Shown here piece after piece: positions 34,342 to 52,366 of a stretch of 64,000 nt of DNA. A model generated the notes under the pieces. The model ran no database searches. It was not told the origin of the DNA and saw nothing but the letters and a program-made list of their open reading frames with translations. Position 1 is the first letter of the stretch. Each line of letters opens with the position of its first letter. The position numbers and the translations under genes are program-made. The stretch comes from Terracidiphilus sp. (lineage in GTDB: Bacteria; Acidobacteriota; Terriglobia; Terriglobales; Acidobacteriaceae): assembly GCA_049513195.1 (NCBI GenBank), contig JBEKWJ010000028.1:31600-95599 (forward strand), written 5' to 3'.

Positions 34342-34457
34342 GGGGATTATGCGCTATTTTCCCGATGAATCCGTTGAATTCCTGTACGATCCGCATCGGA
34401 TGGTTGCACAAGAACCATCCATTCACCAAGGGTTGTGTCGATTTGGGGTTTGTGGTA

Positions 34458-34490
34458 TCCCAGGTCCCAAAATCCGGACTCGGGGCGCCC
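34458..34490 (-). repeat. REP-like palindrome (ATTTT-loop subfamily)
   Basis: Minus strand GGGCGCCCCGAGTCCGGATTTTGGGACCTGGGA, related to 61361-61394. Confidence 0.6.
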
Positions 34491-34518
34491 AGCCGTCCGA
34501 ATTGAGGCCAAAGGCAGA

Positions 34519-34537
34519 TGGCCCCACCGCAGGTGGT
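34519..34537. repeat. 19-bp motif TGGCCCCACCGCAGGTGGT, identical to 51358-51376
   Basis: Exact match to the right boundary of the RAYT cassette; abuts the MFS stop codon. Confidence 0.75.
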
Positions 34538-35784
34538 CACGAAGCCGTCATCTCCCGCCCCTTGGCTTCCTTGCCCAGCGACGCCAGCCCCGCCAGCGTC
34601 AGCGCCACCACAATCACCGTAATCGCCAGCACACCCGGATAGTTCCCCGTGCGCTCGGCCATCAGTGCCTGCGCTTTTCCATTCCATGAAGTGATCAGGC
34701 CGCCTAACTGGTAAGCCAATCCCGGAGCCGTTGCTCTGACCGGTGCCGGCGATAACTCGGTGAGATAGGCCGGCACCACGCCCCATGCTCCCTGCACCAT
34801 GAATTGCATTAGTACCGCGCCCGCGCCCAGCATGACTGCCGAGTGTCCATACGCATAAAGCGGAATCACAGGAATTGCCAACAGCGCGGCGGTGACGATG
34901 GCCCGCTTGCGACCCCACTTCTCCGACAACGCGCCAAAGACAAAGCCGCCCGCAATCGATCCCAATCCGTACAGCACGCCGATGAGTCCGACGACTTGAG
35001 GTGTGAGCCTGGCCTGTGTCGAGAGAAAGGTCGGATACACATCCTGCGTGCCGTGCGAAAAACTCATGAACGCAGTCATCAACAGTATCAAAAAAAGAAA
35101 CGTCGGAAGAAATGCCCACAGACGGTCCAGGTCCCCAGACTTTGCGTTCTGATCATCCACAGCAGAGCGCGTAAGCCGTCGCTTCTTCCCTTCCAGCCAG
35201 ACGGGAGATTCAGCCACCCTCGCCTGCACATAAAAAACCAGCAAAGCCGGAGCGGAACCCAGCATGAATAGCCCTCGCCAACCGATCCAGTGAAAGAAGA
35301 GTGCGAAAGCGCCTGCAGCCAGGATCGAGCCCAGCGCGTAGCCCTCTTGCAGGATGCCGCTGAATGCGCCGCGCCCTTCTTTAGGCAGCGTCTCAAAGGC
35401 CAGCGCCGCGCCCACGCCCCACTCCCCGCCCATCGCCAGACCAAACAACGCGCGCAACACCAGTAGCGCGCCCAGCGAGGGCGCAAAGGCGCAGGCCAGT
35501 TCAATTACCGAGAAGCTGAAAATGTTGACCATCAACACCGGGCGCCGCCCATAGCGGTCGGCCAGCATGCCAAAAAGCACAGCGCCCACCGGCCTGAAGG
35601 CTTGCGTCATAAAGACCGCCCCCAGTACCGCCGACGGCTGGGAGTGAAAGTCGGCGGCGATGGCTTTTACGCAGAAAATCAATAGAAAAAAGTCGAGCGA
35701 ATCCATCGTCCAGCCCAGAAAGGCAGCCAGAAATGTGTGCCGCTGGGGCCGTGTGAGCCGCCGGAAGTTGTCCAGAATAGACAT
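34537..35784 (-). CDS. MFS transporter (SHS/Jen1-NanT-like; ORF extends to 35946)
   Basis: FLGWTMDSLDF, RPVGAVLFGMLADRYGRRP, GLAMGGEWG, HGTQDVYPTFL, QGAWGVVPAYLTEL. Confidence 0.9.
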   Translation of the reverse strand: MSILDNFRRLTRPQRHTFLAAFLGWTMDSLDFFLLIFCVKAIAADFHSQPSAVLGAVFMTQAFRPVGAVLFGMLADRYGRRPVLMVNIFSFSVIELACAFAPSLGALLVLRALFGLAMGGEWGVGAALAFETLPKEGRGAFSGILQEGYALGSILAAGAFALFFHWIGWRGLFMLGSAPALLVFYVQARVAESPVWLEGKKRRLTRSAVDDQNAKSGDLDRLWAFLPTFLFLILLMTAFMSFSHGTQDVYPTFLSTQARLTPQVVGLIGVLYGLGSIAGGFVFGALSEKWGRKRAIVTAALLAIPVIPLYAYGHSAVMLGAGAVLMQFMVQGAWGVVPAYLTELSPAPVRATAPGLAYQLGGLITSWNGKAQALMAERTGNYPGVLAITVIVVALTLAGLASLGKEAKGREMTAS

Positions 35785-35860
35785 AGACGGCAGCATAACA
35801 GGCAAGAGCGAGCAGAACCTATATCTTCTTTTCGATGTTGGTCTAAAAGGAACAGAAAAC

Positions 35861-35876
35861 ATTTGTTGCAACAAAT
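35861..35876. promoter_or_regulatory. Perfect 16-bp palindrome in the divergent MFS/yceI promoter (candidate MarR operator)
   Basis: ATTTGTTGCAACAAAT. Confidence 0.55.
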
Positions 35877-36015
35877 AACAATCGATGAGCATCGAAGTTG
35901 CACAAGAAGATTTCGCGCGAAAAGCAGTCCCGGTTTCCGCACGCATTCAGCAAGAGCGCTTGTCTCTTCTCAACATCAAGCGGCCTCACGGCCGGCACCG
36001 AAAGGGATTTTGACC

Positions 36016-41322: not shown

Positions 41323-41380
41323 GGAACAGCCGCGCCTGAGCGAGAAACTATTCCCTGTTCCCTTTTCCCTACTTCCCTGC
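41316..41380. repeat. CTGTTCC-type heptamer repeats in inverted arrangement
   Basis: GGAATAGGGAACAG ... CTATTCC CTGTTCC CTTTTCC CTACTTCC. Confidence 0.6.
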
Positions 41381-43624
41381 TTTTACATCCCAATCAAAGC
41401 TGATCTGAGCGATCAGACCATTCAGCTTTTCGACGGCGGCCTTCTTCTGCTGCTCCAGGTCGGCGGTCTGCTTGCGCGTAGCCTGCAACTGATCTTCGGC
41501 GCGATTCAACTCATCCACAAAGCGCTTGGCCGCATCGTTGCCCTTGAGCGCGGTCAGGTTCTCGCGGTCGCGCGCTTCGTCGGCAGAGGCTGCCTGTTCT
41601 GTCGCCTTGGATTCCTTGATACGACGATCCAAATCTGCCAGCGCCGCCTCCGCATCAATCACCGGCTTGAGCTTGTCGAGCGCATCGGGAACCCGTTTGA
41701 CCAAGTCAAGCAAATAGACCGACTGATTCTGACTGGAATTCAGCCAGACCTGCGTTCTCTCCGGCCCTTGCTCGCGCACCTCTAGCTTCTGCGTAGAGTG
41801 CGCCGGAACCGGCAGTTTGAAGCGATAGAGGCCAGGCGCGGTCTCGTCGGCCTTCAGATCGCCATCCAGCGTCCAGCCGTTAGTATGGCGCGGATGTTCG
41901 ATCAGCACATCGCGGGTTCCGTCCGATGAGTTGGTTGCCGAGTAGGTCTTCGACTCCCAATTCATATAGGTTTCGACGACGTAACCATTGCCGATTTGCA
42001 CGTGATGCAATGTGCGCCGGTTGTCGCGATCCGTCACCTTCACGCGCACCGCTTGGTCAGCAGCGTAAGAGAGCAGCCGCCGCTCGCCGGGATGAATGGG
42101 GTCAAGCAAGCCTTCTCCGGCAAACTCACCGCTCTCAAAGATCGAAAAGCTTCCCGAGTCAAGCGTCAGCTTCGATTTGTTTTCTAGCCACACCGCACGC
42201 AGCGGCGTCGGCTCCTTCTCGCTCCACAGCGTGACATGCTCGGCAGGCAATTCCTGTTGCAGGATCGGCACCATCGCCGACTCGTTCTTGTGAATCGTCA
42301 CCGGCGCGGTCAGCGCGTACTCGAAAAAGTCATCGAAGGCGTTGGTGGTAACGTCGCCCTCTTTGTAGGCGTCGCTGGCACGGTCTACGCCCTCTTCACT
42401 TTGGACGGTAACAGTTTCACTAGTGTTGGCGCTATTGGACGATGGTCCAAATCCTGCCCCGTATCCATATCCGGAGCCAGAACGAAGACCTCCACCTGAC
42501 TCCGCCATCCTTACGTTCGATGGAATTCTTTGGGGCGCAGAAAGTTTTGCGGCCATTTCGATTTTGTCGAACTGTTTATTCGACTGTGGCGAAGGCGGAG
42601 GAGCTGCCGTCTCCGCCGCTTCATGCGTCTGCGGCGTCAACTGAGCATCGACAGCAATCGGAATTTCCTGCCGCCGCGTGTATATCGGCTGCGAGAGCGG
42701 CTGAATAAAGCTTTGCGGCGCGCCGGCCACCAGCGATAACTGCACATTGTCCCAATCCGCGCCCACGGTGTTATCGACCACCGCCCAGCCCTGCATGGTA
42801 GCGCTCCCGTTCGGCGTGCGCGGAAAGACAATGCGGTAAGTCGACTTCCATACGGGAACCTCGCTGATGTAACTGACACGCAACTCGCGCTGACCCTGGC
42901 CCAGAGCATCGAGAGTAAGGTGCCGCAGGCCGGTCGAGTGCGTAGTCGAAAGCAATTCCAGATAGCGGCTGAGTTCTCCCTGAAGGGTCGTATCCAATGG
43001 CCGTACGCTCAGCGCGGGGATTAACTCAATCACTCGCACCGAGCCCGATGTCGCAACAATCGAGAGATAGATCTTTTCTATGGTCGTACCGGCGTCGCTG
43101 CCGGCAACCTTCTCCGTGCGCGACTCAATAGAGAGCAACCGGCCCGTAATCGTCCCGCCCGGCGCGCCTGTAACCTCGACCCGCTGCCCGCGCAACGCCT
43201 GAAACAACTCAGTCGAAGTGGGGTCGTCCGTCATGCCCAGCGAGAGCGATTTAAGCTGCTCGGCAAGCGGCGTGGTCGAGTTATAGTTGACCCCGGCGAT
43301 GCGCCCTCCACCCTCGTCCAGCACGGTCAGCGATTGCAAAACATCGTTCAACTGCGGCGAAGTAAAGTCGATCGCCACGCGCTGATTGCCTGTGACCGAC
43401 CCAGCGTGCTCAAAGTAGCCCACGCCATTTTTGTAGAGCACGACCTTGCGCACCGGCAGGTCCTTCACCACCACCTGCGGTGGGGCCAACTGCGCCTTTG
43501 ACGCAGCGGATTTAGGCGCAGCCGGAGTCTGAGCGGTAAGAGAAACTGTGAGGGCAAAAGTCACTGCGAGGGCAAGCAGACATAGAACTGCGAAAGAACG
43601 GCGCACGAATCCTCCTTGGGCCAA
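41369..43624 (-). CDS. Secreted DUF4139-domain protein
   Basis: LPVRKVVLYKNGVGYFEH, LNDVLQSL, SYISEVPVWKSTYR, GWAVVDNT..DW.NVQLSLV.G; C-terminal coiled coil. Confidence 0.8.
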   Translation of the reverse strand: MAQGGFVRRSFAVLCLLALAVTFALTVSLTAQTPAAPKSAASKAQLAPPQVVVKDLPVRKVVLYKNGVGYFEHAGSVTGNQRVAIDFTSPQLNDVLQSLTVLDEGGGRIAGVNYNSTTPLAEQLKSLSLGMTDDPTSTELFQALRGQRVEVTGAPGGTITGRLLSIESRTEKVAGSDAGTTIEKIYLSIVATSGSVRVIELIPALSVRPLDTTLQGELSRYLELLSTTHSTGLRHLTLDALGQGQRELRVSYISEVPVWKSTYRIVFPRTPNGSATMQGWAVVDNTVGADWDNVQLSLVAGAPQSFIQPLSQPIYTRRQEIPIAVDAQLTPQTHEAAETAAPPPSPQSNKQFDKIEMAAKLSAPQRIPSNVRMAESGGGLRSGSGYGYGAGFGPSSNSANTSETVTVQSEEGVDRASDAYKEGDVTTNAFDDFFEYALTAPVTIHKNESAMVPILQQELPAEHVTLWSEKEPTPLRAVWLENKSKLTLDSGSFSIFESGEFAGEGLLDPIHPGERRLLSYAADQAVRVKVTDRDNRRTLHHVQIGNGYVVETYMNWESKTYSATNSSDGTRDVLIEHPRHTNGWTLDGDLKADETAPGLYRFKLPVPAHSTQKLEVREQGPERTQVWLNSSQNQSVYLLDLVKRVPDALDKLKPVIDAEAALADLDRRIKESKATEQAASADEARDRENLTALKGNDAAKRFVDELNRAEDQLQATRKQTADLEQQKKAAVEKLNGLIAQISFDWDVKAGK

Positions 43625-48923: not shown

Positions 48924-50330
48924 ATGGCATTTGCAGTCTCGCCGGCGACGGCACTCAACCCCTGGCTCCAGATCCTCTCTGCTTTAGAGATGAAGGTGAT
49001 TCGTCCCTCATTTGAGACCTGGTTTAAACCCACTCGTTATAGCCATATCGCCAGCCGCACGCTGTATGTCCGCGTGCCCTCGGCGGAGTTTCAGCACCTT
49101 GGGGACCGCTATGGAGACCTGATTCAGGAAGCCATCGAGCAGCAGGAGCTGGAACTGGACGACGTCTGTTTTGTGACCGTCGAGGAAGACCCCTCGATCC
49201 CGCCGCAACGCAAGGATGGCGGCTTTGCGCCGGTGCCTGCCCACGCGCCCACCGCGCCGCCGCAAATGCCCTCGCGTACTCCCGAGCAGGCGCGCTTTGA
49301 TTGGTCAACCGCTGCGCAGCTCAACCCCCGCTACACCTTCGACGCGTTCGTCATCGGCAACGGCAACCAGTTTGCCCGCGCCGCATCCCTCGCCGTCGCT
49401 GAGCGGCCTTCCAAGGCTTACAATCCCCTCTTCCTCTATGGCGGCGTCGGCATGGGCAAGACCCACCTGATGCATGCCATCGGCCACGAGGTGAAGCGCC
49501 GCCAGCCAACCACCAACATCTGCTACGTCTCTGCGGAAAAATTCACCAACGAAATGATCACATCGCTGCGCAACGATCGCATGACCAGCTTCCGCGACCG
49601 CTTCCGCACCGTGGATGTGCTCCTGGTGGACGACATCCAGTTCATCGCTCAGAAAGAGCGCACCCAGGAGGAGTTCTTTCATACCTTCAACGCGCTGCAC
49701 GAGAGCATGAAACAGATCGTGATTGCCTCGGACCGTCCGCCCAAAGAGCTGGCGGAGATTGAGGACCGTCTGCGTTCGCGCTTCGAATGGGGCTTGATCG
49801 CCGACATTCAGCCGCCCGATCTGGAAACCAAAGTCGCCATCCTGCAAAAGAAGGCCGAAAACGAGCAGGTGCAGTTGCCGACGGATGTCGCGCTCTTTGT
49901 GGCCTCAAACGTGCGCACCAACGTGCGTGAGTTGGAAGGTGCTCTGGTGCGTCTCATCGCCTGGTGCCAGCTCAACCGCCTCGAGATCACGCTGCCGTCC
50001 ACGCAGCAGTGCCTCAAGCAGTTCATTGACATGCAGGTGCGCAAAATTACCATCGAGGCCATTCAGCGCGCCGTCAGCGAGAATTTCGGCATGAGGGTCT
50101 CTGACCTGAAGCAGAAAAACAATTCGCGCAATGTGGTGGTGCCGCGCCAGATCGCCATGTACCTGGCCAAGCAGATGACTGAAGCCAGCCTGCCAGAGAT
50201 TGGCCGCCAGTTCGGCAACAAGCACCACACCACGGTGATGCATTCAATCTCCAAAATCGACGAACTGCGCCGCGCCGACAAAGACCTCCACCGCACCCTC
50301 AACAAGCTACAAGAGCAATTGAACGCCTAG
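48924..50330 (+). CDS. dnaA: Chromosomal replication initiator DnaA
   Basis: YTFDAFVIG, YNPLFLYGGVGMGKTHL, LLVDDIQF, NVRELEGAL, RQIAMYL, HHTTVMHS. Confidence 0.98.
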   Translation: MAFAVSPATALNPWLQILSALEMKVIRPSFETWFKPTRYSHIASRTLYVRVPSAEFQHLGDRYGDLIQEAIEQQELELDDVCFVTVEEDPSIPPQRKDGGFAPVPAHAPTAPPQMPSRTPEQARFDWSTAAQLNPRYTFDAFVIGNGNQFARAASLAVAERPSKAYNPLFLYGGVGMGKTHLMHAIGHEVKRRQPTTNICYVSAEKFTNEMITSLRNDRMTSFRDRFRTVDVLLVDDIQFIAQKERTQEEFFHTFNALHESMKQIVIASDRPPKELAEIEDRLRSRFEWGLIADIQPPDLETKVAILQKKAENEQVQLPTDVALFVASNVRTNVRELEGALVRLIAWCQLNRLEITLPSTQQCLKQFIDMQVRKITIEAIQRAVSENFGMRVSDLKQKNNSRNVVVPRQIAMYLAKQMTEASLPEIGRQFGNKHHTTVMHSISKIDELRRADKDLHRTLNKLQEQLNA

Positions 50331-50397
50331 CCACCTGCGGTGCGGCCAACCGCCTTCGGCTGCCCCGCAGCGGTTGGCCCGCTCCGCTCATCAGTCC

Positions 50398-50656
50398 CGA
50401 AGAATCACCATGATCCATGAGAACTGTGGATGAAAAGCTGTGTCCCGTTCATCGCGGCCTTATCGCGATGAGCGGGCGTGTGGCCAGAGGTCAGATCGCG
50501 GCCCGACTATGATTGCGGCAATTGGTGCGTTCATCCGTTTCGAAGAATCACCATGAGGTATGAGAACTGTGGATGAAGAGCTGTGCCCCGTTCATCGCGG
50601 CCTTATCGCGATGAGCGGGCGTGTGGCTTGAGGCCAGATCATAGCCGGACTATGAT
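50398..50656 (+). repeat. Two ~116-bp direct repeats (period 143 bp), each containing a REP hairpin
   Basis: Units 50398-50513 and 50541-50656; hairpins CCCGTTCATCGCG-N7-CGCGATGAGCGGG at 50444-50476 and 50587-50619. Confidence 0.9.
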
Positions 50657-50662
50657 AGCCCC

Positions 50663-51178
50663 ATGCCGTACGATCTGAAACGGTTCCAGAAAGCAGAAGC
50701 TCTCCACTTCGTCACTTTCAGTTGCTTTCACCGTCTCCCGCTTCTCGATGCGCCGGACCCCAAGAACACAGTTGAGGCCGTACTTGAACTGACTCGCGCA
50801 CGACATCAGGCGAGGGTCTACGCCTACGTTCTGATGCCTGAGCACGTCCATTTGCTCATCAACGAGCCACCATCGATTCTCGTCGCTCAGTTTCTCAAAG
50901 CAGTCAAGCAGATCACTTCGCGCAAACTGAAAGGTCAACGCGAGAAGTTTTGGGAGCAACGTTACTATGACAGCAACGTCCATGGTGCAGAGGCTCGCTC
51001 CGAGGTGATCCGCTACATCCATCGGAATCCCGTGAAACGCGGATTGGTACCATCTCCCGGCGACTACCAGTGGAGCAGTTTCAACCACTACGCAACCGGA
51101 GTTCGAGGAGCGGTTGAAATCGAATCGGAGTGGACGGCGAGACTTCGCGGCCCACTCATCGCGGCCTTATCGCGATGA
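50663..51178 (+). CDS. REP-associated tyrosine transposase (RAYT, Y1/HUH)
   Basis: HFVTFSC, YVLMPEHVHLL (HUH), FWEQRYYD, YIHRNPVKRGLV, YQWSS; flanked by palindromes. Confidence 0.92.
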   Translation: MPYDLKRFQKAEALHFVTFSCFHRLPLLDAPDPKNTVEAVLELTRARHQARVYAYVLMPEHVHLLINEPPSILVAQFLKAVKQITSRKLKGQREKFWEQRYYDSNVHGAEARSEVIRYIHRNPVKRGLVPSPGDYQWSSFNHYATGVRGAVEIESEWTARLRGPLIAALSR

Positions 51179-51329
51179 GCGGGCGGTTGGGCAGGTGGCC
51201 CGCTCATCAGTCCCAATGAATCCCCATGAGTCTTGAAAAGCTGTGCCCCGTTCATCGCGGCTTTATCGCGATGAGCGGGAGGGCAGCGGCGGGCTGCCCC
51301 ATCCTTCGCGCACTCTGCAAAGGGTGAGG
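51151..51329 (+). repeat. REP hairpin copies downstream of RAYT
   Basis: Hairpins at 51151-51183 (overlapping the RAYT stop) and 51247-51279; variant GCTGCCCCATCCTTCGCG...GCAAAGGGTGAGG at 51291-51329. Confidence 0.85.
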
Positions 51330-51629
51330 TACCCCACGCGAGCAACAAGCGAGCCACTGGCCCCACCGCAGGTGGTTGCAGATAATTTCCCTCCCGGTGT
51401 GCACAATGGAAGAATGAAAGATGGCCAGAGCGGCGTGCTTTTACTGACCACCGACCACTGTCTTTAGGCTGACCCCACCCCCCCCTACACCTCCGGGGAC
51501 GGGTTTTCGGCTCATTGATCACTCGTAACCAGCATTAAATCAACCACTTGTAATTATTTCCTTGAACGAATAGGAACCTCAAAATCGTGTTTTTTGACCC
51601 ATTTTTAGCCCTAAAAGGCTTCGCTTTTG

Positions 51630-51658
51630 GCGAAAAAGGTCGCTTTTTCGCGCTTTTT
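51630..51658. terminator. A/T-flanked hairpin downstream of the jag-like gene
   Basis: GCGAAAAAG-GTCG-CTTTTTCGC followed by GCTTTTT. Confidence 0.45.
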
Positions 51659-51760
51659 GAAAGACAGAGGAAGCTGGCGCAGATCCCTCGCTTTTGGGGA
51701 TTTGGGATACCACGAACCACTGGCGAGCGAATGCCGAGCGTTTGGCCCCAAAGCAGGTGG

Positions 51761-52366
51761 CTAGCGCCGTGAGCGTCCGCGATCTCCGCGATCACGCCCG
51801 CGATCACCTTGGCTTCGCCCGCGGTCCCCAAAGCTTCTCGGCTTCACGGGTGCGGCGACTGGCAAGTCCGTTTTGCCTGCCGGAAAAACAGCGAGAAATC
51901 GTTCCTGTCCTTCGCCATTGCTGGCCGTCTCCACGCCTTCAATGCCGCGGAACGCCATGTGCAGCAGACGGCGCTCTCGGCTATTCATCGCCGGGAAGGC
52001 ATACGGAATGCCGGAGCGGATCACTTTTTCCGCAGCGGTCTCGGCCGTCAGGCGCAGCTCCTGGGCGCGCAAAGCCTTGAAGTTGCCCGCGTCGAAGCTG
52101 ACCAGGTCGCCCTCGCGCTGGTCGAGGCGAAGAATCTGCGCGGAGATGGTCTCCAGAGCCAGCAGCAGTTCGCCGTTATGCTGCGTAACCAGCGGCACGT
52201 CTGGTCCGCCCAGTTCAATGCACAGGGCAGGGGCGTGCTCTTCGGCGTCAGGCACGCTGTCGCCGGCACTGATGCGGTACTTGAGGCGCAGACCACCTAG
52301 CTTGTTCAGGGTGGCGAGGAATCCGGCAATCTTCTGGGCGGCTTGTTGCAGATCATCGATAGGCAT
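51761..52366 (-). CDS. jag: Jag/EloR (KhpB)-like KH + R3H RNA-binding protein lacking Jag_N
   Basis: KH-like segment GPDVPLVTQHNGELLLALE, DAGNFKALR, R3H motif MNSRERRLLH, SNGEGQERFLAV. Confidence 0.8.
   Translation of the reverse strand: MPIDDLQQAAQKIAGFLATLNKLGGLRLKYRISAGDSVPDAEEHAPALCIELGGPDVPLVTQHNGELLLALETISAQILRLDQREGDLVSFDAGNFKALRAQELRLTAETAAEKVIRSGIPYAFPAMNSRERRLLHMAFRGIEGVETASNGEGQERFLAVFPAGKTDLPVAAPVKPRSFGDRGRSQGDRGRDRGDRGRSRR

Follow-up and report, generated by a model that had tools for sequence, protein, structure and literature searches.

Our results suggest that the 18-mer CCACCTGCGGTGGGGCCA, present in five copies in a 64,000-nt stretch of a Terracidiphilus genome (the window; C28:31600-95599 of the 5.0-Mb, 119-contig assembly G000), is probably the conserved head of short, mosaic intergenic repeats that form a genus-specific family, lie at gene ends and resemble REP (repetitive extragenic palindromic) sequences and BIMEs (bacterial interspersed mosaic elements), and not the end of a cassette carrying the neighbouring REP-associated tyrosine transposase (RAYT) gene. 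The sequence is dispersed over the whole genome: allowing up to 3 mismatches, 67 copies (20 exact) were found on ~40 contigs, where ~0 would be expected. Nearly all of these copies are intergenic, and a single one lies inside a gene. The host genus consists of uncultured soil Acidobacteria, and in 16 of the 24 congeners sampled the motif was present at 1-28 copies each (up to 1 mismatch), with 28 copies in G018 and 15 in G014. By comparison, 16 genomes from other genera of the order yielded a single match, with 1 mismatch, and the reversed-pattern controls gave 0-1 matches.

The copies are not placed at random with respect to coding sequences. Sixteen of the 67 begin at the very base that follows the stop codon of a long open reading frame (ORF; at least 166 codons in 15 cases and 91 in the other), compared with ~0.05 expected, the probability that a random oriented position abuts a long-ORF stop being 7.7e-4. 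The binomial test was entered as 16/49 and gave P ~5e-38; for the actual 16/67 we estimate P < 1e-30. Thus, the genome-wide count proposed in a first-pass annotation of this DNA, made from the sequence alone, has now been run, and the preference for stop-adjacent sites suspected there proved to be an extreme enrichment 3' of stop codons, both here and in relatives. In G018 and G009, 9 copies in 20 loci abut a stop, and in eight related species the same is true of 12 more copies, the ORFs concerned having at least 106 codons. Several further copies lie just one base (usually TGA-G) or one partial motif duplicate away from a stop. Roughly a quarter to a half of the copies are stop-abutting.

All three stop codons precede the motif, with no clear departure from their genome usage (TAG 0.28, TAA 0.28, TGA 0.44). 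The abutting motif is always in the sense orientation of the preceding gene, and its opposite end, GGCCA, never abuts a convergent stop. More generally, the 5' flank can be a stop codon of any type, CAA, CCA or something else, and a purine almost always stands immediately before the motif. The genes that carry an abutting copy are mostly core genes, encoding EF-G (fusA), UvrB, FtsH, AroA, enolase, GuaA, ParB, glutamate dehydrogenase, a phosphoribosyltransferase, RuvA, DnaA and Jag; by our reading, RpoC and Zwf belong to the same list.

Two simple explanations of this position were rejected. In the first, the element itself would supply the stop codon, as GTAG REPs do; this is ruled out by the use of three stop types, by C-termini identical to those of orthologues whose site is empty, and by a dnaA stop codon that varies beside a constant motif. 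In the second, a three-base DNA target (T, then two purines) would be recognised; this is insufficient, because, where a stop-like triplet precedes the motif, it is nearly always the true stop of a long ORF, and the remaining copies lack the triplet.

The 18-mer consists of a 5-bp stem (CCACC/GGTGG), a TGC loop and the tail GGCCA, the palindrome spanning 13 nt. In 155 copies from this and related genomes the outer pair of the stem (positions 1 and 13) was C..G in 117, G..C in 12 and A..T in 1, mixed combinations being rare (Fisher P = 4e-9). The other four pairs are uninformative either way because they hardly vary. The REP-like mini-hairpin that the first-pass annotation had read into this sequence is therefore supported both by this covariation and by the dispersed, genus-specific distribution of the repeat.

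The head is normally followed by other modules. About 3 nt after the tail there is usually one of two, a small GC hairpin (for example GCGCCTTCGGCGC) or GCTCGCTnTTCGCTCGC, and the stems of this second hairpin vary yet stay complementary (GCGCC/GGCGC, GCGGC/GCCGC, GGCGC/GCGCC, GCC/GGC and others). Next in line there is often a third hairpin, CCCGCGCC-AGAAAAAA-GGCGCGGG, or a TTCGTGGTWTCCCA module followed by a palindrome. Where several copies occur together they commonly form direct tandems spaced by 19-37 nt, and in front of a copy there is often a partial duplicate of its first 3, 7 or 9 bases. This mosaic build resembles that of the BIMEs.

Within the window, the five matches with up to 3 mismatches compare with 0.06 expected from shuffled sequence. 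The first copy, CCACCTGCGGTGCGGCCA, with 1 mismatch, occupies 50331-50348 (+) and starts 0 nt from the TAG stop (50328-50330) of dnaA (48924-50330, +; Pfam Bac_DnaA and Bac_DnaA_C), whose C-terminus, ...LQEQLNA*, is identical in sister species; three of these carry an orthologous copy. It is followed at 50349-50378 (+) by a second small hairpin, GCCTTCGGC, and by sequence that pairs back onto the 18-mer, so that an extended hairpin over 50325-50378 is predicted, with a fold energy of -31.5 kcal/mol (z -2.35). At the dnaA locus of G018, G009 and G014, ACTGCCTTCGGC is kept after the 18-mer.

The second copy, at 51358-51375 (-), is exact and is complementary to the first at 17 of 18 positions, as had been reported. 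It directly follows ...AATTATCTGCAA, the end of a repeat module that the genome contains ~100 times, a degenerate copy of which fills 51376-51520 (-; blastn and alignment) and comprises a G-run, heptamer repeats, a TTGATTGTGCGC-like stretch and ...TAATTATCTGCAA. The rest of the composite headed by this second 18-mer, at 51291-51357 (-), is made of a GCTCGCTTGTTGCTCGC module and then a palindrome with a GGGGCA foot; the order 18-mer, GCTCGCTnTTCGCTCGC, hairpin is found at ~39 of 128 copies.

The 19-mer TGGCCCCACCGCAGGTGGT recurs exactly at 34519-34537, as previously noted. The 18-mer in it (34519-34536, -) is exact and lies 0 nt from the TGA (34537-34539) of an MFS transporter gene (34537-35946, -; Pfam MFS_1), so the earlier observation that the motif directly follows the stop codons of both dnaA and this gene holds; in six relatives the MFS site is empty. 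Two further window copies, at 43471-43488 and 51743-51760, had been overlooked. The latter (-, CCACCTGCTTTGGGGCCA, 2 mismatches) comes directly after the TAG of a gene with an R3H domain (Jag-like; 51761-52366, -; Pfam R3H) that converges on dnaA, and it is followed by a GCTCGG..GCTCGC module and then by GGTTCGTGGTATCCCA, the whole spanning 51700-51760. This copy and that of dnaA, each with its stop codon, make up a 27-nt inverted repeat, and the window holds two inverted 18-mer pairs, with spacings of 1009 and 1384 nt. The copy at 43471-43488 (+) is exact and, with a second hairpin, ACTGCGCCTTTGACGCAG, makes an element (43471-43505) that lies antisense in the ORF 41369-43624, where it encodes ..KAQLAPPQVV...

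The inverted pair at 50331-50348 and 51358-51375 brackets a RAYT gene, and it had been proposed that the pair is an end signal that lets the whole block move. In such a scheme the inverted 18-mers would be terminal signals (terminal inverted repeats or recombination sites) mobilizing the RAYT-REP block 50331-51375, which would land beside stop codons. The 17/18 complementarity of the bracketing copies is in line with this scheme, and so is the presence of the RAYT unit at different loci in G000 and G009, which indicates that the unit moves or gets rearranged. However, the homology of the unit ends at ~50576 and ~51187, and not at the 18-mers. RAYT orthologues 77-92% identical to that of the window are found in G009 (92% for the protein), G042, G001, G002 and G045, at other loci; in all five species the similarity to the window locus is limited to ~50576-51187, and the 18-mer is absent within 1.5 kb of the gene, which is flanked by a 33-nt palindrome instead. 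The 18-mer is also absent within 1.5 kb of all 29 other RAYT-family loci in the genus, and within 1.2 kb of the other RAYT paralogues of this genome.

The comparison of the orthologous locus, also suggested in the first-pass annotation, was made across species and gave the reciprocal result: in G018, G009 and G014 the left 18-mer sits at the dnaA stop with no RAYT block downstream. Moreover, the motif-rich G018 and G014 have no orthologue of the window RAYT at all, and no link between motif copy number and this RAYT was found. Finally, the right-hand copy belongs to a different composite: its ...AATTATCTGCAA/18-mer junction recurs at 9 or more other loci, and in 345-430-nt composites that start with the 18-mer and end in CTGCAA, and this type of composite is found elsewhere without any RAYT. 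On this evidence we regard movement of the block by its 18-mers as extremely improbable. What stands of the earlier proposal is the inverted pair itself; its members are gene-end repeats and not cassette ends. The RAYT gene appears bracketed because each side of the convergent intergenic region carries copies in the sense orientation of its own gene. The left copy is appended to dnaA and the right copy heads the composite on the jag side, both being resident gene-end repeats, and the RAYT gene with its own palindromes and REPIN-like units (~50376-51285) lies between them without being bounded by them.

The RAYT gene (50663-51178, +) has repeats of its own. It scores 100.1 bits against NCBIfam NF047646 (cutoff 80) and matches Pfam Y1_Tnp, with HVH and RYIHRNP motifs. 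Its assignment to the family thus rests on a curated model, on the HUH and catalytic Tyr motifs, and on flanking palindromes (at -75 and over the 3' end) that are kept in the orthologues. Upstream, at 50385-50659 (+), the repeat search found two tandem 143-nt REPIN-like units, each ending in the 33-nt palindrome CCCGTTCATCGCGGCCTTATCGCGATGAGCGGG (50444-50476 and 50587-50619), the same that flanks RAYT orthologues elsewhere. Downstream, 51151-51279 (+) holds two more of these palindromes, one overlapping the 3' end of the gene (51151-51183) and one at 51247-51279, and one REPIN-like unit. Thus four 33-nt palindromes surround the gene, and there are at least 17 in the genome. The units measure 100-143 nt and are built as GGCCCGCTCATCAG...(~45 nt)...CCCGTTCATCGCG-GCCTTAT-CGCGATGAGCGGGC. 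The RAYT gene, its 33-nt palindromes and these doublet-like units of ~100-140 nt fit the REPIN-RAYT model (Bertels and Rainey 2011, PMC3116915). The 18-mer does not: it forms direct tandem arrays in place of inverted doublets with a fixed spacing, and it flanks no RAYT gene. Note that a sigma-70-like site, TTGAGG-17-TATGAT, lies at 50628-50656, just before the RAYT start.

Comparison of individual sites between species showed that the repeats are both conserved and unstable. At dnaA, the stop codon (TAG or TAA) is followed by the 18-mer in G000, G018, G009 and G014, and downstream similarity is gone after ~35-40 nt; in 25 other species unrelated sequence follows the dnaA stop, often heptamer repeats and then an intrinsic terminator. 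The three orthologous dnaA copies show a pooled identity of 49/54 to that of G000, compared with 56-73% at the four-fold sites of dnaA. The 18-mer has therefore diverged less than synonymous sites have, owing to either constraint or gene conversion. The motif is also present at the same gene end in several species for enolase (G000, G003, G007 and G001), guaA (G000 and G003) and the ..FSLLHYDE gene (adenine phosphoribosyltransferase-like; G000 and G018).

Other sites differ between species. For five exact stop-abutting copies of G000, most of six relatives have no 18-mer directly after the stop, although at the C3 and ftsH sites two relatives and one relative, respectively, carry it a few bases away. 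At ftsH, the unit is placed between the stop and a retained ancestral terminator, and at one further G000 site it replaces (GGGAATA)n repeats. Conversely, G000 has a decayed copy or none at several sites where relatives have a perfect one. The flanks and site comparisons argue against copies confined to a few paralogous loci, as opposed to independent gene ends.

The intragenic element (43471-43505) lies just past the signal peptide encoded by its ORF. The orthologues of G021, G043 and G014 carry it, and those of the more distant G002 and G024 do not; in G021 it has a perfect GCACC..GGTGC head and GCGCCTTCGGCGCC. Between orthologues the outer pair swaps from C..G to G..C, with the protein changing from APPQVV to AAPQVL, a compensatory change that is of note because it is seen even in a copy under coding. 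Either the hairpin is selected even there, or the site has been overwritten from other copies.

The nature of the family was weighed against what is known of other repeats. REP and BIME sequences of Enterobacteria and Pseudomonas are likewise short extragenic hairpin repeats that form mosaics with other modules at the 3' ends of genes, often near the stop, and they too are lineage-specific, with gain, loss and decay. A further parallel comes from the GTAG and CGTC superfamilies (Di Nocera et al. 2013, PMC3733652), whose REPs are contiguous with coding regions; the GTAG REPs supply the TAG of the flanking ORF, and the CGTC REPs are orphans with no associated transposase. We accordingly class the present family as an orphan, unusually small, stop-abutting REP/BIME-type repeat, for which no cognate transposase was found.

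Several observations weigh against this assignment. The palindrome is 13 nt long, compared with 20-40 nt in usual REPs, and copies are counted in tens, when classical families have more than 100 and run to hundreds. Neither a GTAG nor a CGTC tag was found at the ends of the motif, which also differs from the GTAG REPs in that it does not provide the stop codon. Single units have unexceptional fold energies (z -0.5 for a typical one). Stop abutment is absent from about half of the copies, which follow the CTGCAA module, lie within a gene or come from phage-like contigs. Moreover, the eight sampled congeners without the motif, together with the decayed copies, indicate that it is dispensable. 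Two other features set it apart from REPs and BIMEs: it abuts the stop at exactly 0 nt, and its 5-nt tail and its loop are as conserved as its stem. With no tag and no associated transposase, 'REP-like' therefore describes the kind of element, and the mechanism is putative.

The family could be a true collapsed REP, that is, a single-stranded DNA substrate of a Y1 (RAYT/TIRYT) transposase of the genus, copied in trans and directed to insert just past stop codons. This would fit the hairpin with its conserved tail, the lineage-dependent copy number (0-31 per genome), the purine that nearly always precedes the motif and the several RAYT-family genes that each genome of the genus contains. In agreement with such targeting, the intragenic antisense copy is also preceded by a TGA, 0 nt away in G043 and 3 nt away in G000 and G021. 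Acidobacterial tyrosine transposases with unusual flanking repeats are on record, and have been defined as a separate group (PMC3733652). However, flanking of the transposase gene is the defining sign of a cognate pair, and no RAYT locus is flanked by the motif, be it the 29 others of the genus or the other paralogues of this genome. The GTAG head is absent, and a three-base target can account neither for the bias towards true stops nor for the half of the copies that lack the triplet. We therefore consider a collapsed REP of this type unlikely.

A different possibility is that the element is a selected cis-acting signal, in which a putative RNA hairpin starting at +1 would affect termination, ribosome release or the 3'-end processing or stability of core-gene mRNAs, gene conversion spreading the sequence between sites. 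The spacing of exactly 0 nt with any stop codon and the invariable sense orientation point in this direction, as do the presence of the motif at the dnaA, eno, guaA and adenine phosphoribosyltransferase-like gene ends of several species, its slow evolution relative to synonymous sites and the compensatory change at the outer pair. A precedent exists in E. coli, where REPs located up to 15 nt from a stop codon regulate translation, stalling ribosomes and lowering expression, according to the account of Liang, Rudd and Deutscher (2015) given in PMC12306157. Against a signal of this kind stand the decay in G000 of copies at sites intact elsewhere, the eight congeners that do without any copy, and the copies that are antisense in a gene, after the CTGCAA module or in phage-like contigs. 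In addition, a manual count showed similar numbers of transitions that break pairing in the sense RNA and of transitions that preserve a G-U pair there. We hold a selected signal to be possible, on the doubtful side.

As for the REP/BIME-like family that we favour, its hairpin would most likely act in cis, either as a hairpin in the 3' untranslated region of the mRNA or as a single-stranded DNA hairpin at the boundary between coding and non-coding sequence. The similarity of the element between copies and between species may stem from selection acting on hairpin and tail, from ongoing copying or gene conversion, or from both. The exact abutment of the stop reflects either selection for position or insertion tied to the end of translation.

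A bolder version of the latter choice would have both the 18-mer and the heptamer arrays of this genus (see below) placed at the junction of stop codon and 3' untranslated region by a process that responds to translation ending and not to a DNA sequence, or by strong selection for a +1 hairpin. In one form, single-stranded DNA or an R-loop, its upstream edge set by the terminating ribosome, would be used by a copying or transposition activity specific for single strands. In the other, the +1 hairpin would govern termination or 3'-end processing of core-gene mRNAs and be under strong selection. Either form, if true, would amount to a form of genomic punctuation, drawn to stop codons irrespective of type; we judge it distinctly improbable.

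Whatever its origin, the family provides a clean case of a short repeat at zero spacing from any stop codon, at orthologous core-gene ends, with no transposase found. If its placement is mechanistic, it would imply an unknown targeting of DNA insertion or copying to the ends of translation units; if selective, it would represent an unrecognised 3'-end signal in the Acidobacteria, a phylum with almost no molecular genetics. The window also teaches that a transposase gene may be surrounded by inverted repeats that are not its ends.

Other candidate functions for the 18-mer were tried and rejected. It is not a read-through tail or degradation tag: the in-frame extensions all start with PPAVGP, but they run for 11 to at least 50 codons and have no common end. 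Nor is it an intrinsic (Rho-independent) terminator, as no T-run follows the 18-mer or the second hairpin, and the ftsH unit lies upstream of the retained ancestral terminator. A tRNA-like minihelix with a 3' CCA (an RNase P substrate) was speculation only, and two nucleotides, not one, separate the stem from the CCA; ARAGORN detected no tRNA or tmRNA within 300 nt of any copy. An Rfam search over 50000-52200 returned a chance microRNA match only (E = 0.74). A sigma-54 or sigma-70 promoter formed by the 18-mer and TTGCAG has, by our reading, unfit spacings, and the promoter scan was blank at the motif. The idea that tandem arrays have a polarity, with the newest copy beside the stop, met with mixed evidence.

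Exact 18-mers also occur in IMG/VR, with 11 matches in 9 stretches of 7 contigs, none of them abutting a stop. These loci (L236-L244) belong to viral or proviral contigs of 50-58% GC, and twice they lie in one conserved non-coding context (ACTGCTTCGCTTGACTGAGCAAAGCG). The contigs are probably phages of related Acidobacteria. As to a phage origin of the motif, the matches are uninformative.

Further repeats accompany the 18-mer composites. Beside them, at 51291-51334, 51670-51716 and 34440-34500, are palindromes of other families; these have a GGGGCA(CC) foot and often come after TTCGTGGTWTCCCA. The ~100-copy module of the type found at 51376-51520 (- in the window) is present at ~100 loci, many at contig ends, and consists of an AT-rich TATA-like stretch, the G-run GGGGGGGTGGGGG, a heptamer array, TTGATTGTGCGC, 10 nt and GGTAATnnTCTGCAA. 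Its end loosely resembles a -35/-10 promoter pair, and it continues with GCATCGAAGAAGATGCGTTTGCCCTG in ~40 copies and with the 18-mer in ~12-20. The module may be a MITE bearing a promoter, a gene for a small RNA or the end of an IS.

Finally, the position directly after stop codons is also occupied by other sequences. Tandem repeats of 7 nt are abundant in the genome (CAGGGAA, AGCTAAA/TAGCTTT, ACTGACA/TCAGTTG and GGTCAGT; in the window, for example, at 51440-51475), and of the 200 period-7 arrays with 2.8 units or more in this genome, 63 begin no more than 40 nt, and mostly 1-7 nt, past a long-ORF stop. Since many of the heptamer units contain TGA, TAG or TAA, three units give a stop in every frame. 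The arrays share with the 18-mer the position directly after the stop, from which they differ in being made of 7-nt units, the 18-mer being a fixed sequence with a mini-hairpin; in this genus they take that position where the 18-mer is absent, as after dnaA in the relatives L026-L045. Repeats thus seem to gather quite generally just past stop codons in this phylum. At guaA ends that do not carry the 18-mer (relatives L051-L056), five species share a different post-stop sequence, GTGCTGGCCGCC..., followed by the small hairpin GCGCCTTCGGCGC, so other short elements are also conserved at this position.

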